Below the pieces are notes generated by a model. That model was not told the origin of the DNA, did no database searches, and was given only the letters and a program-made list of their open reading frames with translations. 64,000 nt of DNA from a virus. Taxonomy: Duplodnaviria; Caudoviricetes. Location of the stretch: IMG/VR virus record IMGVR_UViG_3300018495_000088, positions 45,163 to 109,162 of that record. The stretch is one strand, 5' to 3'. Below are positions 718 to 30,771 of the stretch, in pieces. Numbering within the stretch: position 1 is the stretch's first letter; each line of letters begins with the position of its first letter. The position numbers and the translations under genes were made by a program.

Positions 718-757
718 TCTTTAATTAAACATATAGGACAAAAAGGAGAAATTTATT

Positions 758-1303: not shown

Positions 1304-1321
1304 TATAGGGAGGTGTCTTAG

Positions 1322-1744: not shown

Positions 1745-1755
1745 GGTACATAGTG

Positions 1756-3654: not shown

Positions 3655-3657
3655 GTT

Positions 3658-4437: not shown

Positions 4438-4449
4438 CCTCTTCTTTTT
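4421..4449 (+). terminator. Probable intrinsic terminator overlapping the stop of 3658..4437
   Basis: AAGAAGGGG-ctaactaa-CCTCTTCTT stem followed by a T-run. Confidence 0.55.
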
Positions 4450-4485
4450 ATATTAAAAAAATTTATTTAATGGAGGAAATATATC

Positions 4486-5259
4486 ATGGCTCAGTATGCA
4501 CTCGATAGAGTTATTAGCGTTGCTGGTACTTACGCAGCAACCAATTCCAAGAAGGGTATTACTGAAGGCGGCCTCGCATTCCTTTGCGACCAGGTCGTAG
4601 ACCCTTCTCTTTCTTTTACCTCTGAAACAGAGGATATCGTAGACGCAAGAAATAATGTAGTAATGCAGCTTCAGGGCGCTCGTGGAGCAACCCTTGGCGC
4701 TTCCAACGCTTTCTTCAACACTCAGATCCTTGCAAACCAGACTGGCGGCAAGGTAGAGGCAATCACCGCAGAGACCTTCGACAAGTACGACATCTGCACT
4801 CTTGATGCAGAGAAGAAGGCAACCCTTACCGTTACACCTTCGGCTGATAGCGAGTATAAGGTGTTCGCTCTTCGTACTGACAATAGCATCACTACTGCAG
4901 AGCCCACCGTTGGTACTTACGCTGACGGTAAGGTAACTGTAGAAAACGGTGTTGAGGGCGACAGAGTTCTCGTTGCTTATACCGCAGAGGTTAAGACTGG
5001 TGAGAAGATCGTTGCTCTTGCAGATGCTCAGAACGAACTTATGAACGTAACTGCAGAAGTTCTTCTTCGTGAACTTTGCGCAGAGGAGCTTTATTATGCT
5101 TACATCATCATGAGAGGTAAGCTCTCTGGTGAGGCTGAGTGGTCTATGACCAGAGATGGTAACCACGCTTTCGAAATTACTGCATTCCCCTCTTATTGCG
5201 ATGCAGAGAGAAAGCTTGTTGAAGTTATTATCGTTAGAGGCGAGGATCTCCTTGCTTAA
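4486..5259 (+). CDS. Major tail (tail tube) protein (257 aa)
   Basis: GGAGG RBS; same strong codon bias as the capsid; beta-rich, acidic; followed by a stable hairpin. Confidence 0.7.
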   Translation: MAQYALDRVISVAGTYAATNSKKGITEGGLAFLCDQVVDPSLSFTSETEDIVDARNNVVMQLQGARGATLGASNAFFNTQILANQTGGKVEAITAETFDKYDICTLDAEKKATLTVTPSADSEYKVFALRTDNSITTAEPTVGTYADGKVTVENGVEGDRVLVAYTAEVKTGEKIVALADAQNELMNVTAEVLLRELCAEELYYAYIIMRGKLSGEAEWSMTRDGNHAFEITAFPSYCDAERKLVEVIIVRGEDLLA

Positions 5260-5273
5260 TTTATAATGTTTAT

Positions 5274-5308
5274 GCTAAGGCGGCTAACACCGCCTTAGCG
5301 CATTATTA
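5274..5308 (+). terminator. Stem-loop after the tail tube gene (weak terminator or mRNA stabiliser)
   Basis: Perfect 10-bp stem GCTAAGGCGG-ctaaca-CCGCCTTAGC; poor U-tract. Confidence 0.55.
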
Positions 5309-5322
5309 AGGAGGTATGACAT

Positions 5323-5688
5323 ATGAATAGAAAGATATGTCGCCAATGCGGAAAAGTGTTTAATTATTGCAGAAGTTGCTCATTTAAACCCATTCCGTGG
5401 AAAGAGGCTGGATTCTGCAGTCGTGAATGTTCTGCAGAACACAAAGAACCAAAAATAAAAGAAGTTATCCCCACAGAGGATGTAGAAGTAGTTGTAATTG
5501 AGGAGGATACATCTACGCCAACAGAAAATGCGATAGAGTGTCCTCATTTTTTTACCGAGGTCGAAGAGTCTGAAATTACATCTACTGAAGAATTTAAGCC
5601 TAAAAAGAAAAGGATTAAAACCATAGAAGTGGGACAAAAGGAGAACAATATAGATGAAAATGAGCAAAATAACGGGTCAGTCATATGA
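5323..5688 (+). CDS. Cys-rich (zinc-finger-like) protein with acidic tail (121 aa)
   Basis: CRQC...CRSC...CSREC at the N-terminus; AAGGAGGT RBS. Confidence 0.6.
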   Translation: MNRKICRQCGKVFNYCRSCSFKPIPWKEAGFCSRECSAEHKEPKIKEVIPTEDVEVVVIEEDTSTPTENAIECPHFFTEVEESEITSTEEFKPKKKRIKTIEVGQKENNIDENEQNNGSVI

Positions 5689-13485: not shown

Positions 13486-14352
13486 ATGTACACTATTTTA
13501 CTCGGCGAAAGTAATGAGCTTATAACAAGTGTGCGAGAAAGAATTATGCAGCGCAGCAAACTTGTCGATGCTCTTCATTTTCTTGTAGATCCCACATATA
13601 AAGGGATTGATATGTCAGACTTCACAGTGACGATGGAGTACGTTACGCCCGTTAGTAGAGAGTATCGAACTGAGACTCTTGTGAAGTCTGAGGCGCTGTA
13701 TAAGGAAAGATTAGAATATAAACTTCCTTTTGATACCGATTTAACTAAAGAAGCGGGTAAAATTGAAATAACACTTACATTTACTAAGGTAGAAATGGAT
13801 CCTGATGGCAATGCTATACAGCGTGTTAGAAAAACAAGCCCCGCTACTGTTACAATTATTCCTTGCGCCGCTTGGTGCAATGTTGTTCCAGATAGTGCTC
13901 TTAGCGCCCTTGACCAGAGACTTCTTAAAGTTGATGCGGCCATTTCTGCCCTTAATGATATGAGTACTTATCTTGATGATAACAAAGCAGACAATATTAT
14001 TATTGATATGGAGGCAAACACTATTCAGCTTACTGCAAATGGAGCGCCCATAGGAGATAAATGCGAAATGCCTGCCAAAGGACATGATTGCGGCATCGAA
14101 AGCTTTGTTATTAGCGTAGATGATGAGATTATTATTACTTTGACAACGGGTCAAGTTATTAATCTTGGTCAGGTAATCGGGGCGTCTGGCGCAACTTTTG
14201 TTCCGCATATTTCGGATGATCTTATTCTCAGCTGGACAAACGATAAAAACTTGGAGAACCCCAATCCCGTTGATCTTTCGCCTTTTAATGACTGGGTAGA
14301 GCTTGGCGACGATGGTGAAGAATCTACCCAGCATAATTGGGAATATATTTAA
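13486..14352 (+). CDS. BppU-like baseplate/fibre anchor protein (288 aa)
   Basis: LEYKLPFDTDLTKEAGKIEITLTF N-terminal domain; GATFVPHISDDLILSWTNDKNLENPNPVDL motif; ends NWEYI. Confidence 0.55.
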   Translation: MYTILLGESNELITSVRERIMQRSKLVDALHFLVDPTYKGIDMSDFTVTMEYVTPVSREYRTETLVKSEALYKERLEYKLPFDTDLTKEAGKIEITLTFTKVEMDPDGNAIQRVRKTSPATVTIIPCAAWCNVVPDSALSALDQRLLKVDAAISALNDMSTYLDDNKADNIIIDMEANTIQLTANGAPIGDKCEMPAKGHDCGIESFVISVDDEIIITLTTGQVINLGQVIGASGATFVPHISDDLILSWTNDKNLENPNPVDLSPFNDWVELGDDGEESTQHNWEYI

Positions 14353-14410
14353 TTGGTAATGACAGTTAAATCTGTTGTTATAAAATATTTTTAGAAAGGA
14401 AGGTGAAAAC

Positions 14411-15793
14411 ATGGCAAACGTGCGTTTTCTGAGTGTAAAATTACGCTCAACATTTGATGCGCTACTTACCAAAGAAGCAAATGCCTTGTATTGGATTGAG
14501 GAAACTCAAGAATTATACAAGGGCTCGACGCTTTATGGCACTGGTGCACTCGTAACGGATAAAGTCGCTGGACTTCTGTCGCCCGAAGACTATGTTAAGT
14601 TTCAGGAACTTACGGCTTCTGGTGGCGGACTTAGCAATTTAAAGCCTGTTGATGGAACCATTAGTATTCTTGATGATGCTAATGGCGGCAAAACTATTAG
14701 CGTGGCTATCTCGCCTGACGTTGGAAACCAGCTTGTTGCTGTTGAAGGCGGTTTGTTCGTTCCTACGGCAGTTGTACCTGAGTACTCTATCGAGAGGCAG
14801 ACAGAAGCAGAAGATGGGTTTGCAGTCAGCTATAAGCTGAAGAAGACTGTCGACGGCGTCGAATTCTATGTAGGAGACACTATTAACATCGCTCGCGACC
14901 TCGTATTGAAAAGAGCAACCCTTGAAACAGTAATTGAGGATGGTGTTCCTTATGAAGAGGCGAAAGTCGGTGATCCTTACATTAAAATGGAGTTTAATGA
15001 TGCTAATACATCTAATCTCTATATTCCTGTTAAGGGTCTTGTAGACAATTATTCTGCGGGGTCTGGCATCGAAATTATTGATAACGAAATTAACATTAAG
15101 CTTGCCGATGTGTCTCACGGTCTGCATTTTGTGGACGGCGCTATGTCTCTTGCTCTTGCAACTCGCAAGGTTGATGGTGCTATGTCTAAGGAAGACAAAC
15201 TTATCATTGATTCTATTCCTTCTGTTTATGTAGCACGCAAGTATGACATCACGGACACTCCTGAGGGAACACTTGTAAACTACGGTGAGAAGGAAATCCG
15301 TGTTATGTGTCCTGCTGATGCAAAATTCGTTAAACAAACCGTTGGCGCCAATGGCAATCCCAATATGTATTATATGACATTCAAGGCGTATGCTCCTGAG
15401 GGTGCCGTAAGCTTTAAAGAGGGCGACAGAGGTGTTATTATTGATGAAATACATACCTTCGATGATTCTGCTGCAGGAGTAGATGAGTTTGGTCGCAAAT
15501 ATAGCGTTGTTTGGCTTGCTCTCGCATCTTATGACCCCGCTTCTGATACTTGGACTTATTTTGGTAAGAATTCTTCTGAATCTAAGTATATTGGTTGGGA
15601 TTACGTGGTAGAGTGGTATGGCGAGAACGGCAAGATTGCTTGCGATTCTATTCGTATCAATCTTAGTAATGAAGATTGTCATAACAATACTAAGCCTTAC
15701 TATATGGCTAATTATGTCACCTCTGTTGAGGTAGACGAACTCAAGGAGTCTGTTTATGAAATTGAACGGGCTAATACTTGGGGCGAATTATAA
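14411..15793 (+). CDS. Fibre/appendage segment protein (460 aa)
   Basis: N-terminal domain related to those of 15858/18003/18832; GDTINIARDLV and YSAGSGIEI fibre motifs; ends TWGEL. Confidence 0.6.
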   Translation: MANVRFLSVKLRSTFDALLTKEANALYWIEETQELYKGSTLYGTGALVTDKVAGLLSPEDYVKFQELTASGGGLSNLKPVDGTISILDDANGGKTISVAISPDVGNQLVAVEGGLFVPTAVVPEYSIERQTEAEDGFAVSYKLKKTVDGVEFYVGDTINIARDLVLKRATLETVIEDGVPYEEAKVGDPYIKMEFNDANTSNLYIPVKGLVDNYSAGSGIEIIDNEINIKLADVSHGLHFVDGAMSLALATRKVDGAMSKEDKLIIDSIPSVYVARKYDITDTPEGTLVNYGEKEIRVMCPADAKFVKQTVGANGNPNMYYMTFKAYAPEGAVSFKEGDRGVIIDEIHTFDDSAAGVDEFGRKYSVVWLALASYDPASDTWTYFGKNSSESKYIGWDYVVEWYGENGKIACDSIRINLSNEDCHNNTKPYYMANYVTSVEVDELKESVYEIERANTWGEL

Positions 15794-15857
15794 TTAAATA
15801 CTTAAACAATATTAATAATTATTAAAACAAAATTTTAATTTTTAGGAGGAAATTATC

Positions 15858-17912
15858 ATGGCTAACGAAATGATCAAATTTTTAAGAGGTAACGTAGCTT
15901 CCCTTCCTGCAACTGCAACCCCTGGTGCAGTGTATTTTACCAAAGATGAAGGTCTTTACCTTGGTCTTGAAGATGGTTCCTACCATCGTTATGGTGATTT
16001 TATCACTGTAAATGATGTAGCTTCCCTTCCTGCTGACGGCGCACATGAAACTTGCATGTATTACTGCGTAGCAGAAAATGTACTTGCTAAGTGGAATGGC
16101 TCTAGCTGGACCCAGATTAACAAGCAGAAGACTCTTGCAGAACTTGGTGGTGTAGCTAAGTCTGTTTACGAGGCTAAGATCGCTCTTCTTGAGAAGGCTG
16201 ACTCTGATAACGCTACTGCTATTTCTGGTGTTGACACTAGACTTCAGGCAGCAGAAGAGAAGCTTAAGTCTGTTGCTACTACCGAGGGTCTTGGTGAACT
16301 TACTGATCGTGTAACCACTGCAGAGGGCGATATCGATGACCTTGAGGCTGCTATCGGTGAAGGTGGTTCTGTAACCCTTGCTATCGCTGATGCTAAGCAG
16401 GCTGGTCTTGATGCTAAGGCACTTGCTGAGACTAAGACTACTATGGCTGAGGTTGAAGCTAAGAACTATGCAACCAAGGAAGAAGCTAAGGGTTATGCAG
16501 ATGCTAAGGATACTGCTATTGGTAATGCTCAGGCCAAGGCGGACGAGGCTTATACTCTTGCTAGTGGCAAGGCTACTATGGAAGAAGTTAACACCGCTAT
16601 TGGCAATGCAGGTCACGCTGTAAAGTCCGAGGTTGACCAGGCTATTGCTGATCTCGATGCTGCTTATAAGAAGGCTGACGGCGACATGAAGACCGAGCTC
16701 GAAGGCAAGATTGGCGCAAAGGTTGACCAGTCTGCTTATGATGCTAAGGTTGCTGAGCTTGTTGGTGCCGACACTACCCTTCAGGGTAACATTGATGCTC
16801 TTGCTGGCAAGGTTGGTACTCCTACCGAGGGCAAGACCATCGTTGAGATGATTGCAGACGCTCAGACTGCTGCTACTTACGATGACACTAAGGTTAAGGA
16901 AGACATCAAGGCTAATGCTGATGCTATTGATGCAATCGAAGCAGATTACCTGAAGAAGGCTGACAAGGATGGTCTTCAGGAGCAGATTACTGCCAACGCT
17001 AATGCGATTACTCTTCTGACTAACGGTGTATCCGCAGAAGAGGTTGATGGTGTTAACGACCTTATCCAGTATGTTAAGGAGCATGGTCCTGAAGTAACTG
17101 GTATGAAGGAAGACATTGCCGATAACGCAAAGGCAATTTCTGACCACGAGACTCTTGCTGCTGAGACTTATGAAACTAAGACAGATGCTGGCAATAAGCT
17201 TACTGAGGCTAAGGGTTACACCGATACCGAGGTAGCTAAGGACAGAGCAAGACTTGATGCTCTTGAGCTGATTGACCATGACCACTCTAACAAGGGTGTT
17301 CTTGACGGCATTACCGCCGAGAAGGTATCCGCTTGGGATGCATCTGAGCAGAATGCTAAGGATTATGTTGATGGCAAGATTACCGATCTGAAGATTGGTG
17401 ACTATGCTAAGCAGTCCGACCTTGATACTCATACTGGAGATACTGTTGCTCACATCACTGCTGCAGAGCGTGAAGCTTGGAACAAGGCAGAACAGAATGC
17501 TAAGGACTATGCAGATGGTCTTGCAGGCAACTATGCCGAAGCTGAGCACGAGCATGTAGTTGCTGATATTACTGACTTCGAGGATACAGTAGAAGCAAGA
17601 ATTACCGCTAAGGGTTATGCTACTACTGGTTATGCAGACGACAAGGCTTCTGCCGCTCAGTCTGCTGCTGAAGCAAAGGCTGCAGAACTTGATTCTGCGC
17701 TTAAGACTGAACTTGAGGGCAAGATTACTTCTGGTGATTCTGCTACTCTTGCTTCTGCCAATGCTTATGCCGACACTGCTAAGAGCGAGGCAATTGCTGC
17801 TGCTAAGACCGAGACCGAGTCTCAGGTTAAGGCTCTTGCTGAGGGTCAGGTTACTACTAACAAGAATGACATTGCAAGTCTGTTTGAGCAGCTTCAGTGG
17901 GGTTCTTTTTAA
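15858..17912 (+). CDS. Ala-rich coiled-coil fibre protein, probably high copy number (684 aa)
   Basis: AGGAGG RBS; capsid-like codon bias; repeated AK.YAD/AK.YTD and HxH motifs; ends QWGSF; followed by a strong terminator. Confidence 0.7.
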   Translation: MANEMIKFLRGNVASLPATATPGAVYFTKDEGLYLGLEDGSYHRYGDFITVNDVASLPADGAHETCMYYCVAENVLAKWNGSSWTQINKQKTLAELGGVAKSVYEAKIALLEKADSDNATAISGVDTRLQAAEEKLKSVATTEGLGELTDRVTTAEGDIDDLEAAIGEGGSVTLAIADAKQAGLDAKALAETKTTMAEVEAKNYATKEEAKGYADAKDTAIGNAQAKADEAYTLASGKATMEEVNTAIGNAGHAVKSEVDQAIADLDAAYKKADGDMKTELEGKIGAKVDQSAYDAKVAELVGADTTLQGNIDALAGKVGTPTEGKTIVEMIADAQTAATYDDTKVKEDIKANADAIDAIEADYLKKADKDGLQEQITANANAITLLTNGVSAEEVDGVNDLIQYVKEHGPEVTGMKEDIADNAKAISDHETLAAETYETKTDAGNKLTEAKGYTDTEVAKDRARLDALELIDHDHSNKGVLDGITAEKVSAWDASEQNAKDYVDGKITDLKIGDYAKQSDLDTHTGDTVAHITAAEREAWNKAEQNAKDYADGLAGNYAEAEHEHVVADITDFEDTVEARITAKGYATTGYADDKASAAQSAAEAKAAELDSALKTELEGKITSGDSATLASANAYADTAKSEAIAAAKTETESQVKALAEGQVTTNKNDIASLFEQLQWGSF

Positions 17913-17939
17913 TAGAATCTAAATATAAATAAACTTAAT

Positions 17940-17970
17940 AGGCTAGTGGGGAAACCCACTAGCCTTCTTT
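17940..17970 (+). terminator. Intrinsic terminator
   Basis: Perfect 11-bp stem AGGCTAGTGGG-GAAA-CCCACTAGCCT then TCTTT. Confidence 0.8.
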
Positions 17971-18002
17971 AAAAAAAATAACCGAATGACGAGGAAACAA
18001 CG

Positions 18003-18669
18003 ATGGCAATACTTAAACCGCTTAGAGGACACAGTTCCTCATTGAATGCACGACCCTTATGTGACGGTTCTATTTATTTTTGCGTTGATACTGGCCTGTT
18101 GTATGTTGATTGTGAAGACGACAAAGGTAATTTGGTGCGTTTAAATGTGCTTGCGGATCGTGCCAATAAAGTAGGATATACGATAGACGATGTAGACGTA
18201 GAGATCAAAGCCTCAGAAATAGCTACTAAGGAATATGTGCGTGGGTTATTGATGGATAATGGAAATTTTACCAAAGAAATTATTTTTGAAATGATTTACC
18301 CCTGTTGGTTCCATTTATATATCGACATCAGATGTATCTCCGTTAGTTTTGTTTGGATTTGGTTCTTGGGAGAAAATTGAAGACAGATTTTTACTTGCGT
18401 CAAGTTCTACTTATTCAATTAATACTGAGGGCGGCGAAGCTACCCACACATTGACAGTAGATGAGATGCCTACGCACGCACACGATTTCAATAGACATCA
18501 ATTATGGACTACGGAAACTGCGCCCGAAACCAGTTTGGAACAAGGTTATGGCGTCACTAACAAATCCGTTGCGATTTATAGAGATACGACCACAACTGCG
18601 GGGAGCGGAATGTCTCACAATAATATGCCTCCGTATCTTGCGGTAAATATATGGAAAAGAGTTAACTGA
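18003..18669 (+). pseudogene. Fibre-tip/baseplate protein (T4 gp10 C-terminal-like domain) split by a +1 frameshift at 18299-18302; pseudogene, sequencing error or programmed shift
   Basis: Removing one C from TAC CCC TGT joins 18003..18380 to the 18349..18669 frame and restores IYPVGSIYISTSDVSP..LFGFGSWEKIEDRFLL...GGEATHTLTVDEMPTHAH...HNNMPPYLAVNIWKRV (221 aa). Confidence 0.75.
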
Positions 18670-18755
18670 TATATTTATTTTATAAAAATAGAATTTTTGG
18701 GCATATTTAATGCTTAAAACTTGAAAATTACAAATAATTAATTTTGAAAACAACA

Positions 18756-18805
18756 GTTGGCTTTGTAGTCAGAGACACGAAGAAAACTTTTTATATAAAG
18801 CCAAC
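18756..18805. repeat. Intergenic inverted repeat (12-bp arms, 26-nt spacer) upstream of the 1303-aa fibre gene
   Basis: GTTGGCTTTGTA (18756-18767) pairs with TATAAAGCCAAC (18794-18805), one G-U pair. Confidence 0.55.
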
Positions 18806-18831
18806 ATTCTTACTTAGAAGGGAGAATAGAA

Positions 18832-21800
18832 ATGGCACTTTGGAAACCATTTAGAGGCAGTCGTGCAGATTTAGATGCTGTTGCTAAACGTGACGGTTAT
18901 GTTTATTTTTGTGACGATGGAGCCTTATTCTTTGATTATACAGATAAAAATGGTAATCTACAAAGAAAACAAATTAACGCTAAAGACGCCGAAACGCTTA
19001 CAGGCATGTCTTTAGATCAAATTCAAAAATCCATCTCTTGGAACGACCTGCTTAACAAACCCGAACTTGGTCTTATTGCCGTATATGACGAAATTAGCAA
19101 AGGTCTTCTTACCGAAGATGTTCAGGAAACTCTTGATAAGATAGATACTATCGAGAGCGTTTATGAAACAAAGACTGGCTCTTCGATAAAATTAGATGAA
19201 GCTAAGGCTTATGCTGACGCTAACCTTGAAACTGCAAAGTCTTACACTGATGAGAAAATAGCAAACATTCCAGCTGTAGATTCTTATACCAAACCAGAAA
19301 TTGATGCCGCTTTAGAAAACAAAGCAAACAACGATCACGATCATGATGATATTTATTATACAGAAGCAGAGATTGATGTAAAGCTTTCTGGCAAATCCGA
19401 CACTGGTCATACTCATAGCAATTATGCACCTACTTCACGAACTGTTAACGGAAAAGAACTTTCTTCCAACATTACCCTTTCTGCTTCTGATGTCGGTGCT
19501 GATGCAAGCGGTTCTGCTAATACAGCTTTAAATTCTGCAAAGTCTTATACCGACGATGCGATTGAAGCACTTGGCGATACTTATTACACCGAGGCAGAAA
19601 TTGATACAAAGCTTGCATCTAAATCGGATTCAACACATAATCACGACTCTAAATACGACACAAAGGGTTCTGCTTCTGCTGTTCAAACAAATTTAGATGT
19701 AGTAAGCGATACACTCGATTCTCACACAGACGATTCTGACATCCACGTAACTACAACAAATAAGTCTAACTGGAATACTGCTTATACTCATTCTCAATCT
19801 ACTCATGCAAGAACAGATGCAACAAAAGTCGCAGATTCCACAACTAATGGTAATATTCTTATCAATGGAAGTGAAACAAATGTTTACACACATCCCAACT
19901 CTGGCGTAACTGCTGGCACTTATAAGAGCGTGACAGTAAATGCACAAGGTCATGTTACTGGCGGTACGAATCCGACTACATTGGCTGGATATGGAATTAC
20001 CGATGCCGAGACTAAGGGTGCGGCAAGTAGTGCTCTTGCAAGTGCAAAAGAATATACGGACTCTGTAGCATCTGGTAAAGCTAATACAAACCACAATCAC
20101 GACACTACTTATGATAAAAAGGGTGCTGCTGATAGCGCATTGGCTTCTGCAAAATCCTATGCTGATTCTGCCGCTACTACTGCTGCAAATGCTGTTAAGA
20201 ATGACCTATTAAACGGTGCTGGCACAGCTTATGATACTCTTAAAGAACTTGGTGATTTGATTGACGACAATGCAGATGCGATTGATGCGCTTGAAACTGT
20301 TGCCGCTGGCAAAGCTGACAAAACTCATACTCATGCGATTTCGGATGTATCTGGTCTTCAGTCTGCTCTTGATGGTAAGGCAGCCTCTTCTCACGGAACA
20401 CACGTTTCTTATAGTGCTACGGCTCCTGTAATGGACGGTACTGCAAGCGTTGGCACCGCAAGTACCGTTGCAAGAAGCGACCATAAACATCCTACCGACA
20501 CAAGCCGTGCATCTAAAACAGAATTTGATTCTCATACAAGCAATACAACAGCGCATATTACTTCAACAGAAAGAAGCAATTGGAATGCTGCTAAGACACA
20601 CGCTGATTCCGCTCACGCACCTTCTAATGCTGAAAAGAATCAGAACGCATTTAGCAATATTAAGGTAGGTTCTACTACCGTCGCTGCTGATGCTGCAACT
20701 GACACTGTTGAGTTTGTAGGCAGCAACGTCACTATTACTCCTGATACGACTAATGACAAAGTGACCTTTACTGTTGCTGATGGTAGCACAAGTGGAAAGG
20801 GTGTTGTACAACTCACCAACAGTACATCAAGCACTTCTACTACTACCGCTGCAACACCAAGTAGTGTTAAATCGGCTTATGATTTAGCAAATACTGCTAA
20901 GACAAATGCTGCAACCGCACAGTCTAGAGCGGATAGCGCTTATTCTTTGGCTGAAGGCAAAGTTGATAGTTTATCAGACTTAGGTGTAACTGCTACCGCT
21001 ACCGAGTTGAATTATGTTGATGGAGTAACTTCAAATATTCAGACTCAACTGGATGGTAAGGCACCTTCTTCTCACAATCAATCCGCTAGTACTATCACAA
21101 GCGGAACTTTATCTTCTGATAGATTGCCTACCGTTCCGATTTCTAAGGGTGGCACAGGTGCAACAACTGCGGCTGGTGCTCTTACTAATTTAGGAATTAC
21201 AGCTACTGCTGCGGAACTGAACAAAATGGATGGTGTAACAGCTACAACAACTGAGCTTAACTATGTGGATGGAGTTACAAGTAATATTCAGACGCAGTTG
21301 GATGGAAAATTGGATAAAACAACAAAATACGCTGGTAGTTCAAGCACAGGTGGTGCTGCTAATAGTGCAGTTAAAGCAACTCAAGACGGCAGTGGTAATA
21401 CTATTACAAGTACTTATGCAACAAAGGCTGAATTAGATTCAGCTAAATCAAGCTTGCAAACTTCTATTAACGGAAAAGCAAATAGTTCGCATATACATTC
21501 TATTTCTAATGTAACTAATTTACAAAGTTCATTAGACGCAAAACAAGCAACTGTCACAGGTGCTGCGACAACTATCACAGGTTCCAATCTTACCGCTTCA
21601 AGAGCTTTAATTTCTAACTCTTCTGGTAAGGTTGCGGTTTCAGACATAACATCCACGGAATTAGCGTATTTGGACGGCGTTACAAGTAACATCCAAACAC
21701 AACTTGATGCCAGGGCAAATAAGTCAGATATTGCAACAACGATAATGCAGGGTACTGCTACCCAAAATACTACCTATTGGAAAATCTCTGGTTTCGGCAA

Positions 21801-22743
21801 TTGGGGCACAGGAACATGGATGCAAAAAGGTTTTTCCATGCTTATCACTTCAAGAGCGGGCGAAATGGTTTGGGTTAGCCTTGCAGCAAACGACTCTAAT
21901 ACAAGTGCGGGAGCTATTCGTCTTATCAACCGATATTCCAAGATCGCTGCGATACATTACAGTGTTTCGGAAAGCGCAATTTATGTAACTGCAGCTGGCT
22001 GGGCTAATAATATTTGTGCTCATATTCTCTCTAATGTAAATGGAGATTATGTGCCTACCATTGCAAGTGCAAGTGCCTTGCCAAGTGATGCAGTTTCAAT
22101 TAATATTATAGAATTTGGTATTGACGGTACAGGCACTGTCGTTGGAGATAATTCAGTGCCTCTTGCAATGGGCGGCTCCACAACAAGACCAACCTATAAT
22201 AGTAAAGACCTTGCTTTAAAGAGTGACGTCGATGCCATTACGCTAGACACTCTAGGTGGAAATGATAGATATTATACTGAGTCCGAGATTGATAGCAAGG
22301 TGTCAACTTTGAACACCGCTATTAATGGCAAGGCAGCGTCTTCTCACACTCACGATGACAGATATTATACAGAAGCAGAAATCAACGCCAAGGTGGACAC
22401 TTTAAATACTGCTATCGCTGGCAAAGCTCCAAGTGTGCATAGTCACGGTCATATACAAGATGGTACTGTAGGTATGAAGACTTCAGATTCCAATGAAGTG
22501 AGTTTTTCGTCTAACGCTAATTATATCTATTTTGGATATGACAATCGCATGGGTTCAACTGGCATAGTTGATACTTATAAGTTCGGAAAACATAGCGGAA
22601 CAGCTAGTGCTGCAGATGGTAATATCGAATGTGGTTCATTGGCAGCAGGAAGAACTCTTAAGGGTGGAACTGTAACTGTCGGCAACGCAGCTACATTACA
22701 ATATGATTCTACAAATCAATGTCTTAACTTTGTATTCGGATAA
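18832..22743 (+). CDS. Long tail-fibre-like protein with HxH motifs and internal repeats (1303 aa)
   Basis: Repeats YYTE[A/S]EI (4x) and TEL.Y.DGVTSNIQTQLD (3x); GVVQLTNSTSSTSTTTAATPSSVKSAYD fibre motif; many HxH motifs; ends CLNFVFG. Confidence 0.75.
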   Translation: MALWKPFRGSRADLDAVAKRDGYVYFCDDGALFFDYTDKNGNLQRKQINAKDAETLTGMSLDQIQKSISWNDLLNKPELGLIAVYDEISKGLLTEDVQETLDKIDTIESVYETKTGSSIKLDEAKAYADANLETAKSYTDEKIANIPAVDSYTKPEIDAALENKANNDHDHDDIYYTEAEIDVKLSGKSDTGHTHSNYAPTSRTVNGKELSSNITLSASDVGADASGSANTALNSAKSYTDDAIEALGDTYYTEAEIDTKLASKSDSTHNHDSKYDTKGSASAVQTNLDVVSDTLDSHTDDSDIHVTTTNKSNWNTAYTHSQSTHARTDATKVADSTTNGNILINGSETNVYTHPNSGVTAGTYKSVTVNAQGHVTGGTNPTTLAGYGITDAETKGAASSALASAKEYTDSVASGKANTNHNHDTTYDKKGAADSALASAKSYADSAATTAANAVKNDLLNGAGTAYDTLKELGDLIDDNADAIDALETVAAGKADKTHTHAISDVSGLQSALDGKAASSHGTHVSYSATAPVMDGTASVGTASTVARSDHKHPTDTSRASKTEFDSHTSNTTAHITSTERSNWNAAKTHADSAHAPSNAEKNQNAFSNIKVGSTTVAADAATDTVEFVGSNVTITPDTTNDKVTFTVADGSTSGKGVVQLTNSTSSTSTTTAATPSSVKSAYDLANTAKTNAATAQSRADSAYSLAEGKVDSLSDLGVTATATELNYVDGVTSNIQTQLDGKAPSSHNQSASTITSGTLSSDRLPTVPISKGGTGATTAAGALTNLGITATAAELNKMDGVTATTTELNYVDGVTSNIQTQLDGKLDKTTKYAGSSSTGGAANSAVKATQDGSGNTITSTYATKAELDSAKSSLQTSINGKANSSHIHSISNVTNLQSSLDAKQATVTGAATTITGSNLTASRALISNSSGKVAVSDITSTELAYLDGVTSNIQTQLDARANKSDIATTIMQGTATQNTTYWKISGFGNWGTGTWMQKGFSMLITSRAGEMVWVSLAANDSNTSAGAIRLINRYSKIAAIHYSVSESAIYVTAAGWANNICAHILSNVNGDYVPTIASASALPSDAVSINIIEFGIDGTGTVVGDNSVPLAMGGSTTRPTYNSKDLALKSDVDAITLDTLGGNDRYYTESEIDSKVSTLNTAINGKAASSHTHDDRYYTEAEINAKVDTLNTAIAGKAPSVHSHGHIQDGTVGMKTSDSNEVSFSSNANYIYFGYDNRMGSTGIVDTYKFGKHSGTASAADGNIECGSLAAGRTLKGGTVTVGNAATLQYDSTNQCLNFVFG

Positions 22744-22755
22744 GGAGGTGTCCAT

Positions 22756-25700
22756 ATGAGTTTACAAGTATGGTTGCCTCTAAATGGTAATCTAGAAAAT
22801 CTTGGATTGTCGGATTTATCCTTCAGAGTTGTTAACTACAGCAATGCTATTAGTTCAGCAACTTCTGGCGGTAAAGTCGTTTCTGGATTATACAAAAGAA
22901 CTACTAAAGAAACGGCTGATTATATTATCAGCGATAAAAATATTACATTAGATGGCGATGTAACAATGTGTTGTTGGGCTAAAGTAACTGGAATTGGTTA
23001 TAGTGGAACAGCAAACGGCCTCTTTGGGCAGCATGGGCATCAAACAGGTGGACTGGGTATCACGATGAAGGATGTTAGCTCTACTGACTTACGAATGAGC
23101 GTCAATACAGGTTTATATGGCGACAGTCATGGTGGCTCTAGTGACAGAACTTATTGCACATATTACGGTTCAACTAACATTTATAATGCGTGGCATCATT
23201 TATGTTTAACTTATGATAGTAAAACAAAACAGTTACGCATGTATGTAGATGGCAAATTAGAGAATATTCAAGGTTGTGGCTCTTATGCTACGCTAAATGG
23301 TAATAACATTACTCCCAGACCTGTAATCTTATTTGCTTGGTCTACTGACCACCTTAGCTCAAGTATTGTAAATTATCGTCCACCTTGTGAACTAAATGAT
23401 GTTCGTATTTATGACCATGTGCTGTCCGTCAAAGAAATTAAAGAGATATCTAAAGGTCTTGTTGCTCATTATCAGCTAAAACCCACTAATATCACAAATT
23501 ATGCAAAGAGTACTCCGTTCAGTATTTATAATAACTATGGAGTAGGAGCAACTTTAACACAGTTAAGTGAACGATTTATGGGTTATCCTGTTTATAGATT
23601 AACAATGACTCCTACTAGTGCAAGTGTTAGTAGTTTTCAAACCGAGTTGTGGTCACATGGTGTGTGTCATGGTCGGTGGACATTTAATGCAAACACAAAA
23701 TATTGTTACTGGTTATACTATAGACCTGTTAGCCACAATGATATTCGAGCAGGTGGCACAGCAAGTAATATTAATGGATGGACAGAGATTGCTCCTCAAT
23801 ATATTGAAGATGGCTGGTATAGAGTTGGTCAATATAGAAACGGTAGTGTTACTTCAACTCAAGCAGATGACATATATACGTCATTTATAACTCCTTCAGC
23901 AGCAGCTGGTGTTCCAATTACTATTGATTTTTGTGCTCCGCATCTAATTGGTGGGTTATCTGAGATTATTGAGACTTACGATGGAGTAGTAGCTGAGGAT
24001 AACAAAGTACACGATGTATCTGGCTATGGTAATCATTTAAATATTACTGGTTCAATTGCAGCAAATAGTACAAGTCCGAGATACAGTAACAGTCTTGATT
24101 TTAATCAAACTGGTTATCTAAAGAAAACAGACTTTAACATGACCACGAATGAGTTTACCATCACATTCTGGTTGAATCCTCCCTACTCAATCAACGCACA
24201 ACATTTTATATGTGGTACATTTAATAGCTGGACTGGTAACGGATTCGGTATGTGGAGAGACAGCACAGGTGGTGGATATAGTTTGCTGTATAGGTCAAAT
24301 AGTGAGGGTGGTCACACAGGGCTCCCAGCAGTTACGCCTCCTCATGATACATGGAGTCATATAGCAATTGTTTACACTGGCACTCAAGGTATTGTTTATC
24401 TGAACGGGGCCGAAGTAGCTAGAGTAAATGGTGGCTCAAGTGGCACAGTGTCACACCCTGTTCTTTATTTAGGTAACTCAATGTATAGTGAGGTTGCATC
24501 ACAAACAGATGAAGCATCTATGTCTGACTTCAGATTCTATGCTACAGCGTTATCAGCTTCTGATATTGAAGGATTATATAAACACGGTGCTTCTATAGCA
24601 AAAGATGGCACCTTATTCGCATACGACTTTAACGAGTTCAATCCAAATGCAAAAAGTGGTGTTGATAAAGATGGTACTGCTTCTAGTTGCAGTCTTAACA
24701 CTAAAGTAAGTCCTACTGCGGACATGAAGCTTAAAACTTTAGAAGATGGTTCTTCTTGGGCAAGAATACATTATTTGGATCTAACAAATGATAAAACATT
24801 CTTTGCTAATGCTGCTGAGGTTGCTAAATGTAGTAGAAACAATCGTTTTAGCCGTATGAGAGATGTTGATAAGTTTAAGAGTCAACCCTCCCTTTCTAGT
24901 GGTTATACTGAACTTGAGTATATTCAGTCTAGCGGAACACAGTATATTAATACTGGAATTGCTCCAACAAGCGATATGAAGGTTGAAATTTCCTTTATAC
25001 CTACAAATGGATTAACAGAACATTCAATTTTTGGTTCGTCTTGGGCTGTAGATGGATTCTTCCTAATGATTTATCAAGGAAAAATTAGATTCCATTCAGG
25101 TGGTTCAGTTATTGATGCTGTTTCATGTTCAGCAGGAAACAGATATATAATGGAATGTACAAACAGTTATATTAAAATCAACGGTACCAGTTATAGCATT
25201 TCAGGTGGAGCAAATACTGCTAATAATATCCTTCTTCTTGGCGACATGGGATACAACGAAAGTTGTCGTGGTATTGGTAAAATTGAATACGCTAAGATAT
25301 GGGCAGATGGTAAACTCGTTCGTAACTTTGTTCCTTGTAAAAATGCAGGTGGCACAGTTGGTTTATATGATTTAGTTGAAGATAAATTCTACACTAATGC
25401 AGGAAGTGGCTCGTTCACAGCAGGTACTTTTGTAAGTAAGTATGAGTTCATGTTAACTTATCCAGCCCTATCCAGTACTGAATATAATAGATGGACTCAG
25501 ACATCATCACCTAATGCTACGTCCGTTACAGGATATACCCCTATCCATATTGCTTGGCCAGCTCACAGTGCAGGTATTCGCAAACATGGTAGTGCTTCTT
25601 TGTACAACTGTGACAGTGGTGACACTTGGTATGCTCCTATTGGACAGTATAGTATTTGGGAAGGTGGCATTCCCGCGGCAAATGGAAATATGCAACTTCA

Positions 25701-25797
25701 AACAGAACTTTGGGTTAGAACAGATAAATCTGCTGATGCTACTCAAACAAAAATTTATGATGGTACTATAGTAGCATCAAACTTTATTGAATTATAA
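22756..25797 (+). CDS. LamG/concanavalin-like multidomain adhesin (1013 aa)
   Basis: MSLQVWLPLNG start; WHHLCLTYD..LRMYVDG..LNDVRIYDHVLS and WSHIAIVY..MSDFRFYATALS LamG motifs; SGYTELEYIQSSGTQYINTG domain. Confidence 0.75.
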   Translation: MSLQVWLPLNGNLENLGLSDLSFRVVNYSNAISSATSGGKVVSGLYKRTTKETADYIISDKNITLDGDVTMCCWAKVTGIGYSGTANGLFGQHGHQTGGLGITMKDVSSTDLRMSVNTGLYGDSHGGSSDRTYCTYYGSTNIYNAWHHLCLTYDSKTKQLRMYVDGKLENIQGCGSYATLNGNNITPRPVILFAWSTDHLSSSIVNYRPPCELNDVRIYDHVLSVKEIKEISKGLVAHYQLKPTNITNYAKSTPFSIYNNYGVGATLTQLSERFMGYPVYRLTMTPTSASVSSFQTELWSHGVCHGRWTFNANTKYCYWLYYRPVSHNDIRAGGTASNINGWTEIAPQYIEDGWYRVGQYRNGSVTSTQADDIYTSFITPSAAAGVPITIDFCAPHLIGGLSEIIETYDGVVAEDNKVHDVSGYGNHLNITGSIAANSTSPRYSNSLDFNQTGYLKKTDFNMTTNEFTITFWLNPPYSINAQHFICGTFNSWTGNGFGMWRDSTGGGYSLLYRSNSEGGHTGLPAVTPPHDTWSHIAIVYTGTQGIVYLNGAEVARVNGGSSGTVSHPVLYLGNSMYSEVASQTDEASMSDFRFYATALSASDIEGLYKHGASIAKDGTLFAYDFNEFNPNAKSGVDKDGTASSCSLNTKVSPTADMKLKTLEDGSSWARIHYLDLTNDKTFFANAAEVAKCSRNNRFSRMRDVDKFKSQPSLSSGYTELEYIQSSGTQYINTGIAPTSDMKVEISFIPTNGLTEHSIFGSSWAVDGFFLMIYQGKIRFHSGGSVIDAVSCSAGNRYIMECTNSYIKINGTSYSISGGANTANNILLLGDMGYNESCRGIGKIEYAKIWADGKLVRNFVPCKNAGGTVGLYDLVEDKFYTNAGSGSFTAGTFVSKYEFMLTYPALSSTEYNRWTQTSSPNATSVTGYTPIHIAWPAHSAGIRKHGSASLYNCDSGDTWYAPIGQYSIWEGGIPAANGNMQLQTELWVRTDKSADATQTKIYDGTIVASNFIEL

Positions 25798-25812
25798 GGA
25801 GATGATAAATAA

Positions 25813-26052
25813 ATGCAAGTAAAAGATTTAATTGTTACTGGCAACGCTAGAATTCTCGGCAACCTATATACTAATACTAAGATTACGGTAGATTCTGCAT
25901 TATCTAACACGTCTATTAATCCTGTTCAAAATAAGGTTATAAAGGCTGCGTTAGATGCCAAGGCACCCGCATATACCTATGGCACAGCAGATGTTACTGT
26001 GGGTGGTACAAGTAGTGCGGCCACAGGCACATTACATTTTGTATATGAATAA
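25813..26052 (+). CDS. Small fibre adaptor protein (79 aa)
   Basis: AAGGAG RBS; VDSALSNTSINPVQNKVI fibre motif; ends GTLHFVYE. Confidence 0.6.
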   Translation: MQVKDLIVTGNARILGNLYTNTKITVDSALSNTSINPVQNKVIKAALDAKAPAYTYGTADVTVGGTSSAATGTLHFVYE

Positions 26053-26063
26053 GAGGTGAGATT

Positions 26064-27272
26064 ATGGCTAAAAAAATGCTTTTAACCATAGATGGCACCT
26101 ATAGAAATATAAAAAAAGCCTACATTACTGTGAACGGTGTTTATCATAAAGTGAAAAAGGCATTTATTACTGTAGGCGGTGTTTATCACCCCGTATGGAA
26201 CGCCAATCCTACCTCTGAACCCACTTATTGGGGCACTTCAGAGAATTTATATGCCCCAGTAAGTCAGCTAGCAGCAACTTCTGTTGGTAATTACGCCTTA
26301 TTTGGTGGAGGGTATGATCCTAGCCTTGATAACAATGAAGCTTTCTCAAGATGTGAGGGCTATAGTTCATCACTTACACATACAAGCCTAACGCCTTTGA
26401 ATGCGACATCATATTCGGCTCTTAGGCTCGCTGCAACTACTGTTGGAGGATATGCCATATTCGGTGGTGGCGAGAGCGATACGCTCGATACTCTTGATTT
26501 GATAAATGACTTTGCAAATAATCACATAACGGCATACAATACTTCATTGACAGACCAAGGTACTCTAACTAATAGTAGACTTGGTGTTGAAGCCTCTAGG
26601 TTGGCGGCTACGACGGTTGGCAATTATGCTTTGTTCGGAGGCGGATATAATAAATGGCACGTATTTGAAAATTGGCAATATAAAACCAAGGAAGCCTGGC
26701 AAAATCATGTGACGGCATATAATTCCTCACTGACAAAATCTGTGCCAGGCGGATTAAACTTGGGAAGACGCGGTTTGGCTGCAACAACTGTTGGAAATTA
26801 TGCTTTATTTGGTGGTGGAATTCAAAGCGGTACAACCAGTAGTATTGTTGATACATATAACACATCTTTGACCAAAGGAACGGCAACTTCTTTGTCCGTA
26901 CCAAGAGATGACTTAACCGCTACGACAGTTGGTGGATATGCAATTTTCGCGGGAGGTTGGAATGATGGCGACGTGAATACGGTTGATGCATATAATACGT
27001 CTTTAACAAGGGTGTCCTGCTCACCGCTGCAAACTGCTCGTGATAAACTTAATTCAACTACCTTGGGCGATTTCGCATTCATTGGATGTAGTGAAGCAAC
27101 TACAAATATTGATGTGTATGACAAAAATTTGACAAAAGTATTTATTTTACAAACACTGCAAGCAAGATGTTTTTACGGGGCGGCCACAATTGGCAACTAT
27201 GCTTTGTTCGGTGGTGGCGACGTAACGGGTATCGGCGTGACCGCAAGAGTCGACGTTTTTACTATAGTTTAA
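26064..27272 (+). CDS. Kelch-like beta-propeller receptor-binding protein (402 aa)
   Basis: Seven repeats of LAATTVGNYALFGGG...AYN.SLT; N-terminal KKAYITVNGVYHKVKK attachment-type motif. Confidence 0.7.
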   Translation: MAKKMLLTIDGTYRNIKKAYITVNGVYHKVKKAFITVGGVYHPVWNANPTSEPTYWGTSENLYAPVSQLAATSVGNYALFGGGYDPSLDNNEAFSRCEGYSSSLTHTSLTPLNATSYSALRLAATTVGGYAIFGGGESDTLDTLDLINDFANNHITAYNTSLTDQGTLTNSRLGVEASRLAATTVGNYALFGGGYNKWHVFENWQYKTKEAWQNHVTAYNSSLTKSVPGGLNLGRRGLAATTVGNYALFGGGIQSGTTSSIVDTYNTSLTKGTATSLSVPRDDLTATTVGGYAIFAGGWNDGDVNTVDAYNTSLTRVSCSPLQTARDKLNSTTLGDFAFIGCSEATTNIDVYDKNLTKVFILQTLQARCFYGAATIGNYALFGGGDVTGIGVTARVDVFTIV

Positions 27273-27295
27273 CTTATTAAAAAGGAGATAACAAA

Positions 27296-27727
27296 ATGAA
27301 AAAATATGCAATTTGGAATAAAACCGATCCAATTATTACGCCTATTGGTGAAGTATTAACAGCAGAACAATGGATTGACAGATATCCTGTTGCAGGCGTA
27401 GAATCTATTACAGTGTTATGCGCTGCAGGTGAAATTAATGGTGCATTTTTTGGAACTTTAGGTCAGGTCGTCGAAGCCTACGAAGACCAAGGTTGCGATT
27501 TTTCTGAATGTACCACGCCAGAGGAAAAATTAGCAACAATCGAGGCTTTTGATGATGCTAAAGCGGCAGAAAAGATTGCGGCACAAGTAGCTTCTCAGGA
27601 GGCGGCCAAGGTGGCGGCCGAAGAAGAGAGAGCCAATGCTGAATTAACAGCTATGTCTCTTGCAAGTATCGCAGCTAGTATGGAGTATCAGAACATGTTA
27701 ACACTTGATGATGCTGAGGAGGTGTAA
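27296..27727 (+). CDS. Fibre-associated protein, XkdW-like position (143 aa)
   Basis: AAGGAG RBS; Ala-rich helical C-terminus; immediately precedes an XkdX-family gene. Confidence 0.55.
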   Translation: MKKYAIWNKTDPIITPIGEVLTAEQWIDRYPVAGVESITVLCAAGEINGAFFGTLGQVVEAYEDQGCDFSECTTPEEKLATIEAFDDAKAAEKIAAQVASQEAAKVAAEEERANAELTAMSLASIAASMEYQNMLTLDDAEEV

Positions 27728-27729
27728 TC

Positions 27730-27861
27730 ATGAATTACGAAAGAGTAAAGTATTACTACGAAGCAGGTCTTTGGAGTCTTCCTATGGTGAAAATGGCCGT
27801 TCGTAAGGGTGTTATTACTAGAGAGCAGTATAAAGAAATTACAGGAGTAGAATATAAGTAA
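27730..27861 (+). CDS. XkdX-family protein (43 aa; not in the ORF track)
   Basis: GGAGGTG RBS; MNYERVKYYYEAGLWSLPMVKMAVRKGVITREQYKEITGVEYK fits the XkdX pattern (YY..GLW...V..AV..G.IT..QYKEITG). Confidence 0.85.
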   Translation: MNYERVKYYYEAGLWSLPMVKMAVRKGVITREQYKEITGVEYK

Positions 27862-27930: not shown

Positions 27931-30771
27931 ATGGCAAAAAAATATCTTGTACAACACCGCAGAGGCACCATTCAAGAATGGGAAAACGATGCCATTGTCC
28001 CACTTGAGGGTGAGATTGTCATTGAAATTGATTACATCAACTCATTGCACAAACTCAAAATTGGTGACGGTGTGCATTCATATGCGGAGTTAAAATATTT
28101 ACAAGCAGGCGGAGATCCTGTTATTCAAGAATTAATTAAAATTTTGCCCCGTGTTGTTACGGTCACATTGGATGTAAACCGATGGGCAAAGAACGAAAAT
28201 AGTTCAGCTTGTTTCAGTCAGACCGTGGCGTTAGATAAAATAACCTCGCGTAGCCGACTAGACTTGCAACCAGACACAGATATGCTTAATGAATTTAAAG
28301 AACTGGGCGTATCTTTCGTAACTGAAAATCAAAATGGCACTCTTTGGGTGCACTCGGTCGGAGCTAAGCCGACCACTACATATATAATGCAGGCTACAAT
28401 TGTCGAAACTGAAGTAGAGGTAGAGCTTGAGAAGATAGTCGGTACGCCGATTGGAGTTACAAATCCTCATAAGCAACCCGACTGGAACCAAGCCGATCCT
28501 ACACAGCTAGACTTTATATATAATAAACCTATCTTTGGCGGATTTGCGTTCAAAGATGTGATAACTTGGGCAGATCTCCCAGAGGATGTTCGGGCGGCTT
28601 TAGATAAAGCTAATTCAGCGTTGCAGCCTTACACGGAGTCTGACCCGACCGTGCCCGCTTGGGCGAAGAATCCTACCAAGCCCACATACGCTGTTAATGA
28701 AATTGCTGGAGCTCTCGCATATACTCGGCAAGAGCTTACCGAGGAGCAGAAAGCACAGGTGCGTTCTAATATCGGCGCAGGCGCGAGCAGTTTCTCTGGT
28801 GATTATAATGATTTGATTAATAAACCTTTTATTCCCTCCGTAGATGGATTAGTGACAAGGGAATATGTCGATGAAGAGCTTAGTTATAAGGTGGATAAAG
28901 TTTCGGGTAAAGGATTGTCTACGAATGACTTCACAAATGCCTATAAGAAGAAAATAGATTCGGCATTACAGTCGTATACCGAGTCTGATCCCACCGTTCC
29001 CTCTTGGGCAAAAGCTTCGGAAAAACCTACATATACGGCAAATGAGGTGGGAGCAATTTCGTATAATACCGCCCAGAATTTAACTGAGGCTCAAAAGGCC
29101 CAAGCAAGAGCTAATCTCGGCACGACTATTGGAACTCCCGCGCCTCCAGGTGAGGATGGATACTCTCCGAGCGCAAAGGTAATAAAGACTGGGAAAACTG
29201 CAACTATAACAATCACCGATAAAACAGGCACCACAACAGCAAGTGTAAGTGACGGTGCAGATGGTGTAGATGGTGCAGACGGTACTTCCGTAGCCATTGA
29301 AAGTATTACCGAAAGTGACGTGGACGGCGGATTAAATGTTGTAACTTTCTCAGATGGCAAGACGCTGACAATTAAAAATGGTTCTAGCGGCGTGGGCTCC
29401 GATGGTAACGATGGCGAGAACGGTATAAGTCCTACGGTTGCGGTTAGCAAAATAGGAACCACAACTACTATTGCTATCACAGATGTTAACGGCACTCAAA
29501 CAGCGACTATTAACGACGGTGAAAAAGGAGAGGACGGACAATCATGTACTCACTCTTGGAATGGTACGACTCTTACTGTAACATCTGCAAGCGGAACATC
29601 CTCTGCAAATCTTAAGGGAGAGAGCGGTACATCTGTTGTCGTTAGCAACGTCTCTACTTCTTCTGTGGATGGTGGATCTAATGTTGTAACATTTTCAGAT
29701 GGCAATACTTTGACTATTAAGAATGGACAAAGAGGATCCGATGGTTCATCTATTTCTATCTCATCGATTGAAGAGGTTGGTGGCTATCAAGAGGGAAAAG
29801 TCATTCTTGGTGTAGAAAAAATAACTTCCGATACCTATGCGAATGGAGTTACCTATGTAGACGAAAAGTTTATTCTACTTGACATCTATCCGAAACCCAA
29901 CGGTACGGTTATGGTTACCTACGGCGGGCTAACAAAGACGATTACTGATACAAGTGGGGCGGAAAGCCCGAGTGCACAACGAGTATTCTTCGGCACTTTC
30001 AATGGTGTCTCAGATGAAGTGATAACCCCTACATCAGGCAGATTGACGATTGAGGGTGATTATAATAGTTTTGGCTGTGGTGTCTTTTACTCTTCTGGAC
30101 AAGTATCTACTGCGGGTTCTTGCGTGATAGCAGTCATAAATTGTGGACACATTAAATTTATTCCAGACAACGCATTTTCCGATTGCAAAAAGCTAACAGA
30201 CATAGAAATTCCGTATGATGTAGAGATGATCGGCCATATGGCATTTGCAAATTGTACTAGCCTTAAGAATGTAAAACTCCCTGATAGTGTGGCGCATATT
30301 GGAGTTATGGCGTTCTGTAATTGCACAAGCCTATCAAGTATTGTAATTCCAGCCAGCGTAACAATTATTGAGATGTTCGCTTTTGTTCTTGATTCAGGTT
30401 ATAGTAGAACTGTTTTTATGAAATCTACCATTCCCCCGACTTTTCCTGATGGGGAATTTGGTCAGTTTGCCACAGATGGTACACATAAAATTGTAGTACC
30501 TTATGGTTACGCCGAAATATATAAAACCACAAGTGATTGGAGCGGATATGCGAACTACATCATTGAAGGTGATACTAATAATATTTTTGCCGAAGACGAT
30601 GGTAGTGCTAATATCATAACATTTTCTGATGGTAAAACTTTGACTATTAAGAATGGTACAAAAGGATCTACTCCTATTAGGGGCGTAGATTATTATACCG
30701 AGGCAGATAAACAAGAAATGATTAATCTTGTTCTTGCCGCACTTCCTGAGTGGAAGGGAGGTAGTTACTAA
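27931..30771 (+). CDS. Fibre protein with Mtd-N/hyaluronidase-N-like anchor, collagen-like segments and BspA-type LRR domain (946 aa)
   Basis: RRGT..EW...PLEGEI...KLKIGDGVHSYAELKY N-terminus; ESDPTVP.WAK (2x); NVVTFSDGKTLTIKNG-like (3x); IG.MAF.NCTSL..V.LPDSV LRR; ends EWKGGSY. Confidence 0.75.
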   Translation: MAKKYLVQHRRGTIQEWENDAIVPLEGEIVIEIDYINSLHKLKIGDGVHSYAELKYLQAGGDPVIQELIKILPRVVTVTLDVNRWAKNENSSACFSQTVALDKITSRSRLDLQPDTDMLNEFKELGVSFVTENQNGTLWVHSVGAKPTTTYIMQATIVETEVEVELEKIVGTPIGVTNPHKQPDWNQADPTQLDFIYNKPIFGGFAFKDVITWADLPEDVRAALDKANSALQPYTESDPTVPAWAKNPTKPTYAVNEIAGALAYTRQELTEEQKAQVRSNIGAGASSFSGDYNDLINKPFIPSVDGLVTREYVDEELSYKVDKVSGKGLSTNDFTNAYKKKIDSALQSYTESDPTVPSWAKASEKPTYTANEVGAISYNTAQNLTEAQKAQARANLGTTIGTPAPPGEDGYSPSAKVIKTGKTATITITDKTGTTTASVSDGADGVDGADGTSVAIESITESDVDGGLNVVTFSDGKTLTIKNGSSGVGSDGNDGENGISPTVAVSKIGTTTTIAITDVNGTQTATINDGEKGEDGQSCTHSWNGTTLTVTSASGTSSANLKGESGTSVVVSNVSTSSVDGGSNVVTFSDGNTLTIKNGQRGSDGSSISISSIEEVGGYQEGKVILGVEKITSDTYANGVTYVDEKFILLDIYPKPNGTVMVTYGGLTKTITDTSGAESPSAQRVFFGTFNGVSDEVITPTSGRLTIEGDYNSFGCGVFYSSGQVSTAGSCVIAVINCGHIKFIPDNAFSDCKKLTDIEIPYDVEMIGHMAFANCTSLKNVKLPDSVAHIGVMAFCNCTSLSSIVIPASVTIIEMFAFVLDSGYSRTVFMKSTIPPTFPDGEFGQFATDGTHKIVVPYGYAEIYKTTSDWSGYANYIIEGDTNNIFAEDDGSANIITFSDGKTLTIKNGTKGSTPIRGVDYYTEADKQEMINLVLAALPEWKGGSY

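Follow-up and report, generated by a model that had tools for sequence, protein, structure and literature searches.

A possible modular multi-protein tail fibre of a siphophage, read from conserved C-terminal tryptophan tails and N-terminal domains of consecutive genes

A 64-kb stretch of phage DNA (IMG/VR record IMGVR_UViG_3300018495_000088) carries a run of fibre genes, 13486 to 22743, whose products, in our view and with about even confidence, together form a single siphophage tail fibre of modular build. The window, i.e. the whole stretch that was analysed, covers 64 kb at the right-hand end of a phage genome that is contained in a single contig of 109 kb, and genes are named here by the window position at which they start. 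In the proposed fibre, a BppU-like anchor encoded by 13486 would sit on the baseplate, and its flexible acidic C-terminal tail would end in a W-x-x-hydrophobic peptide that docks into the small N-terminal beta domain (N-domain) of 14411. Likewise, the coiled-coil rod 15858 would receive the W-G-E-L tail of 14411 in its N-domain, and the W-G-S-F end of the rod would dock into the N-domain of a distal tip that is exchangeable, namely 18832 and/or the short, Gp10_C-tipped 18003/18349. The anchor would be placed on the Dit ring, and three tails per trimer could make the joints either collinear or branching. A sequence-only reading of the same DNA had proposed a chain of 7-8 gene products; the serial arrangement fits our data, but the chain comprises only 4 to 5 products (13486, 14411, 15858, 18832 and/or 18003); genes 22756 to 27727 carry neither element. 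A stricter form of the proposal, an ordered plug-and-socket system in which type-specific W peptides would each bind only the matching N-domain type, is put forward tentatively. The last residues of the peptides are variable in the anchor, L or M in the first segment and F in the rod.

Conserved tails and N-terminal domains

NWEYI, TWGEL and QWGSF are, respectively, the C-termini encoded by three consecutive open reading frames (ORFs), 13486-14352, 14411-15793 and 15858-17912, which have in common the ending W-x-x-hydrophobic, with tryptophan (W) at position -4. In the 109-kb genome, W at -4 together with a hydrophobic last residue was found only in these three proteins and in the major capsid protein. 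The W tails of 13486, 14411 and 15858 are far beyond chance expectation. The capsid protein, the end of whose gene lies at window positions 22-717 (genome 44773-45879), terminates in V-W-E-I-V, and this ending is kept in L008, L009, L014, L019 and L021, which belong to a set of about 20 related contigs taken from IMG/VR, ENA and Logan and labelled L001, L003, L006, L029 and so on.

Homologues of 15858 (n=120) were picked by residues 1-75 alone, thereby excluding the tail from selection. W stood at -4 in 111 of them, and four more ended in W-G-[ST]-F followed by 1-2 extra residues (115/120 in total). Among the 111, F at -1 was invariant and G occurred at -3 in 104, while positions -20 to -7 had an entropy of about 2-3 bits. 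The lengths of the 15858 homologues ranged from 387 to 869 amino acids (aa); the motif also stood at the end of a 1296-aa relative that has additional globular inserts. The 120 listed homologues of 14411 all ended in W-x-[ED]-[LMIW]; 117 had W at -4, and the other three had the same motif with one extra residue. The last residue was type-specific, being L or M in 14411-type and F in rod-type proteins. By this conservation, the W tails of both types are under strong selection. The ORF ends and the conservation in homologues confirm NWEYI, TWGEL and QWGSF as the C-terminal motifs that the sequence-only reading took them to be. CLNFVFG (18832), NFIEL (22756) and LHFVYE (25813), which it had placed in the same series, found no support and were left aside, since they lack W and the genes following them are without the N-domain. 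The C-termini of 18832-type proteins were not conserved and were unrelated to one another.

The anchor protein (288 aa; 13486..14352, + strand) has a BppU-type N-terminal immunoglobulin (Ig)-like domain at residues 1-128, a helix at 141-166 and a beta domain at 170-252; behind these, a disordered acidic linker leads to the terminal N-W-E-Y-I, encoded by the last five codons (14335-14349, + strand). The AlphaFold2 (AF2) model of 13486 had a predicted local distance difference test (pLDDT) score of 71.6, and the tail (residues 268-288, 21 residues) scored below 50 and was predicted to be disordered, as would be expected of a docking peptide. Foldseek related the model to the TP901-1 baseplate (4V96; E 1.2e-6) as well as to the N-terminal domain of TP901-1 ORF48 (3UH8; E 1e-4). 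In VIA, residues 1-128 gave Z 10.4 to 4V96_AQ (root-mean-square deviation 3.5, 113 aligned) and Z 10.2 to 3UH8, and could also be aligned with chains from the baseplates of the phages 80alpha and NF5, whereas generic Ig rows reached only Z 6-7. The earlier label of a BppU-like anchor is supported by fold in both comparisons. Pfam BppU_N matched neither 13486 at E<0.1 nor 13 family members at E<=5, and 13486 is therefore filed as BppU-like by its predicted fold only. The anchors of relatives have a C-terminal module, an acidic linker and a Y-I-W-x-x tail in common, and the anchor tail was kept in 11 of 12 relatives, across three different N-terminal types.

The first in-line segment (460 aa; 14411..15793, + strand) has no Pfam match. 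Its AF2 model (pLDDT 78.8) comprises a divergent N-domain (about 14411-14545), Ig-like beta domains and a C-terminal helix, followed by T-W-G-E-L (15776-15790); Foldseek of this model returned generic Ig-like matches only. The rod segment (684 aa; 15858..17912, + strand) begins with an N-domain (about 15858-16001), continues with an Ala/Glu/Lys-rich stretch that we read as a coiled coil, and ends with the Q-W-G-S-F tail (17895-17909). No Pfam match and no convincing PHROG domain match were obtained for the rod, and a receptor-binding domain was not detected in it.

ORFs 14411, 15858, 18003 and 18832 do open with the N-terminal stretches in which the sequence-only reading had seen a related domain. 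A hidden Markov model (HMM) of the tip type, i.e. the 18832 type, was made from 150 database proteins. It matched 18832, 18003 and 15858 (the last at E 7e-6), and alignment of the rod-type with the tip-type N-domain (15858 versus 18003/18832) by hhalign gave 91% probability and E 9e-7. The claimed relationship is significant for these three genes, but 14411 is only weakly related to them; its link goes via short 14411-type relatives, which the tip-type HMM matched weakly (E 2-3e-3). In the AF2 model, the N-domain of 14411 forms a strand, a short helix and three strands, with pLDDT of about 90. The N-domains of all four proteins were unmatched in Pfam, including Mtd_N (PF18454). Their assignment as canonical Mtd_N domains was rejected, as hhalign against the canonical group was not significant (E>0.1). 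A PDB profile search with the N-domain gave weak, repeat-summed matches to designed or PQQ-type propeller blades, which we did not take as homology.

In a library of 1.84 billion proteins, the tip-type domain is present in 1826 protein clusters. In the best 150 tip-type proteins, it always started at residue 1 and was followed by bodies of 90 to 1598 aa; such a fixed position ahead of varied bodies is typical of a shared attachment module. A W-type tail was found in only one of the best 150 of the 1826 clusters. The two elements are distributed in a definite manner: the first protein has the tail alone, the middle proteins both tail and N-domain, and the tip proteins just the N-domain.

Gene order in relatives and alternative arrangements

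Nearly all of the about 20 related contigs showed the same order, namely an anchor with tail and without N-domain, a 14411-type gene, a rod ending in W-G-x-F and a tip-type gene without tail. Three departures from this order were informative. In L029, the protein with the rod-type N-domain is without the tail, and another protein of 1092 aa, directly before the tip gene, ends in L-T-W-G-E-F. In L001, a further tip-type segment has been inserted ahead of another tip-type gene and has W-G-T-F as its end. Both rearranged relatives keep W-G-x-F just upstream of a tip-type N-domain. In L003, the anchor homologue has no tail, and the next protein has the 14411 C-terminal domain but a different start and end, without the N-domain. 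L005 has neither W tail nor N-domain, and no anchor gene was seen there. Overall, the comparative evidence fits an arrangement in which the W-tailed proteins would be the upstream segments and the N-domain proteins would attach to them.

Several results weigh against the proposed chain. In L006, L008, L010 and L021, there is one acceptor more than donors, and a strict linear chain fails there. LRR_5 genes often sit between the rod and tip genes, and no W donor lies upstream of the canonical Mtd_N proteins in these gene clusters. In L029, such a protein itself bears a W tail. Covariation of rod tails with tip N-domains was not visible in 18 pairs, because W, G and F are invariant. Every context is from a single phage lineage in which synteny is conserved, and the co-occurrence is therefore partly inheritance. 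The similarity of the 14411 N-terminus to the other N-domains is weak (E 0.008-0.035), and in the AF2 monomer of 14411 the tail is a coil with no hint of a partner or of a contact in cis. Neither an internal N-domain in the ORFs of the locus nor a rod-tip fusion protein was found; the sole protein above 1197 aa with a rod-type N-domain in the fusion search still ends in the W tail.

The surplus of acceptors could be accommodated in two ways. Within the proposed fibre, it makes branching or alternative tips likely. It would also be expected if each N-domain protein bound the BppU-like anchor or another baseplate site independently, like BppL on BppU, with the W tails serving otherwise, for example for interaction with chaperone, tail tube or host. 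One BppU trimer of TP901-1 holds several receptor-binding trimers, and the fold of 13486 matches 4V96; the Mtd_N proteins lacking a W donor in the cluster also agree with independent binding. However, this would leave the rod as a fibre in which no binding domain is detectable but whose four-residue tip is invariant. Moreover, the tail is missing from tip-type proteins and stays beside the tip-type gene through rearrangements. We regard this explanation as unlikely, though it is one to be reckoned with.

A second explanation needs no contact between partners. The N-domain would be a trimerisation nucleus, the W tail would cap the C-terminal helix or coiled coil of its own protein, and the gene order would be inherited synteny only. 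The tail does come after a helix in 14411 and after the presumed coiled coil in 15858, the coiled coils of other relatives end in the related E-I-D-x-L-F type, and a single lineage lies behind all the contexts. In the anchor, however, the tail follows a 20-residue disordered acidic linker and not a helix, and the same tail is found on anchors with three unrelated N-terminal types. Tip-type fibres fold without a tail, and in L029 the tail has moved to another protein and has been lost from the rod-type protein. Intrinsic folding is, in our view, improbable. That 14411 and 15858, which carry tail and N-domain within one chain, would form head-to-tail homopolymers of variable fibre length is very improbable, since their tails are type-specific (L/M versus invariant F) and their N-domains are of distinct types, which argues for ordered hetero-pairs rather than homopolymers.

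If the ordered plug-and-socket system is true, the 4-5 products would order themselves into one segmented or branched appendage, and the distal tips would be freely swappable among thousands of gut and rumen phages. A real joint would also provide a sequence rule for which genes of uncultured phages form one fibre and in which order. The rule would consist of a four-residue C-terminal tail and an unnamed N-terminal domain found in more than 1800 protein clusters, neither of which has a Pfam family. It would further point out the exchangeable tips that set host range, and the joint would serve as a compact connector of natural origin where receptor-binding modules are to be swapped between engineered phages.

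Tip genes, downstream fibre genes and genome setting

The two tip genes differ in length. The short tip fibre (18003..18669, + strand) is frame-broken: its tip-type N-domain lies in frame 1 (18003-18380), and a Gp10_C domain (PF21939; Pfam E 1.7e-11, 45.6 bits, above the cut-off of 27) lies in the +1 frame (18301-18669). The frame break occurs between the two at a run of four C (18299-18302), where deleting one base would join the gene into a single ORF; the break may be a sequencing error, the mark of a pseudogene or a programmed frameshift. Intact single-ORF proteins with the tip-type N-domain and Gp10_C exist (P0336 and others). The long distal fibre (1303 aa; 18832..22743, + strand) has a tip-type N-domain at about 18832-18969 (HMM 82-96 bits), along with Phage_fiber_2 and PTR repeats (Pfam), and no W tail. 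The distal tips are exchangeable. A palindromic hairpin with a perfect 11-bp stem (17940..17965), located by a terminator-like scan, sits straight after the rod gene and ahead of the two tip genes.

The four downstream genes (22756..27727, + strand) have no N-domain HMM match and no W tail. They encode a protein with two Laminin_G_3 lectin-like domains (22756), one of 79 aa (25813), one with Kelch-like repeats (26064) and one of 143 aa (27296). No relatives of 22756 and 26064 were found in IMG/VR. In 26064, five strict Kelch-like repeats with a spacing of 46-58 aa, and two degenerate ones by eye, were noted, without a Pfam match at E<0.1. The labels XkdW and XkdX, suggested earlier for 27296 and 25813, found no match in Pfam at E<0.1 and were not retained.

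Further downstream lies a separate fibre protein (946 aa; 27931..30771, + strand), which starts in the manner of canonical Mtd_N and also has CFSR and LRR_5; its Pfam Mtd_N score of 22.9 bits is under the cut-off of 26.3. Residues 4-159 match an entire 163-aa protein of L006 (E 4e-31), and residues 166-260 correspond to the beginning of the L006 gene that comes after it (E 4e-16). The single ORF 27931-30771 thus corresponds to two adjacent, overlapping genes in L006 (16326-17619). Therefore, adjacent genes of this cluster can encode collinear, successive parts of one fibre. The junction in this case is of another type, after a T-I-T-E-V ending; endings of the T-I-T-E-V type recur in L006, L008, L011, L014, L019 and L028. 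Consecutive fibre genes with other recurring starts, and with the ends V-I-E-F and E-I-D-x-L-F, were seen in L003 (9596-12368) and L005 (9755-15846); these alternative ends and starts suggest further junction types.

LRR_5 insertions were located in L001 (13742-15868), L034 (442-1491), L037 (1577-5816) and L035 (309-1511). The inserted BspA-type LRR_5 genes occur in one to four copies and have an N-terminal stretch and an ending in common. In L029, a 98-kb Logan contig, TAG must be read as Q to keep the tip fibre gene open, and an integrase gene adjoins the fibre cluster. In L002 (282-8597), the counterpart of the 2366-aa protein encoded at window 5917-13017 consists of two ORFs with a 277-aa gene between them; this inserted gene was judged, by eye only, to be a GIY-YIG homing endonuclease.

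All large genes of the window are on the + strand. Head and tube-like genes (1-5688) are followed by fibre-like genes (5917 to 38126) and, downstream of these, by an amidase-type lysin, a 3385-aa tape measure (PhageMin_Tail), an SPP1-type Dit (SPP1_Dit; 50853) and tail-tip proteins. The tape measure, the SPP1-type Dit and the tail-tip proteins identify the phage as a long-tailed siphophage. Neither megablast with the DNA of the region nor tblastn with two proteins from it gave a match among deposited phage genomes (INPHARED).

Comparison with known fibre systems

The sequence-only reading knew of no description of the architecture. However, serial and branched fibres are already known, from T4 gp34-37 and from BppU holding BppL, and so are N-terminal anchor modules like the Mtd beta-prism. 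The closest likeness in fold is with BppU (ORF48) of TP901-1, as 13486 has the same succession of N-domain fold, long helix and C-terminal beta domain. As in the BppU/BppL system, an SPP1-type Dit is present, and behind the anchor come proteins that have an N-terminal attachment module in common. Unlike BppU, 13486 has no Pfam sequence match, and its gene lies 36 kb upstream of Dit. The proposed mode of attachment also differs: here it would be by a disordered C-terminal peptide, and the attached proteins bear a further tail, which would give serial segments.

The Mtd protein of Bordetella phage BPP-1 likewise has a small conserved N-terminal beta domain before a variable body, and the Mtd beta-prism is presumed to be attached to the fibre end (PMC10743442); the N-domains of 14411, 15858, 18003 and 18832, however, match neither Pfam Mtd_N nor the canonical group. 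The analogy with donor-strand complementation, as in the chaperone-usher system, found no support; the sole likeness is the notion that a peptide at the end of one subunit completes or binds its neighbour. Chaperone-usher pili use an N-terminal extension as donor and an incomplete Ig fold as acceptor, whereas here the putative donor is C-terminal and the acceptor would be a small strand-helix-three-strand domain.

The long tail fibre of T4 is built from gp34, gp35, gp36 and gp37, the products of adjacent genes in proximal-to-distal order (PMC3004832), and a similar succession is proposed here. There is no sequence relation between the two, and the T4 fibre is without a repeated standard joint, whereas in the fibre proposed here tails and N-domains of one kind would meet at each junction.

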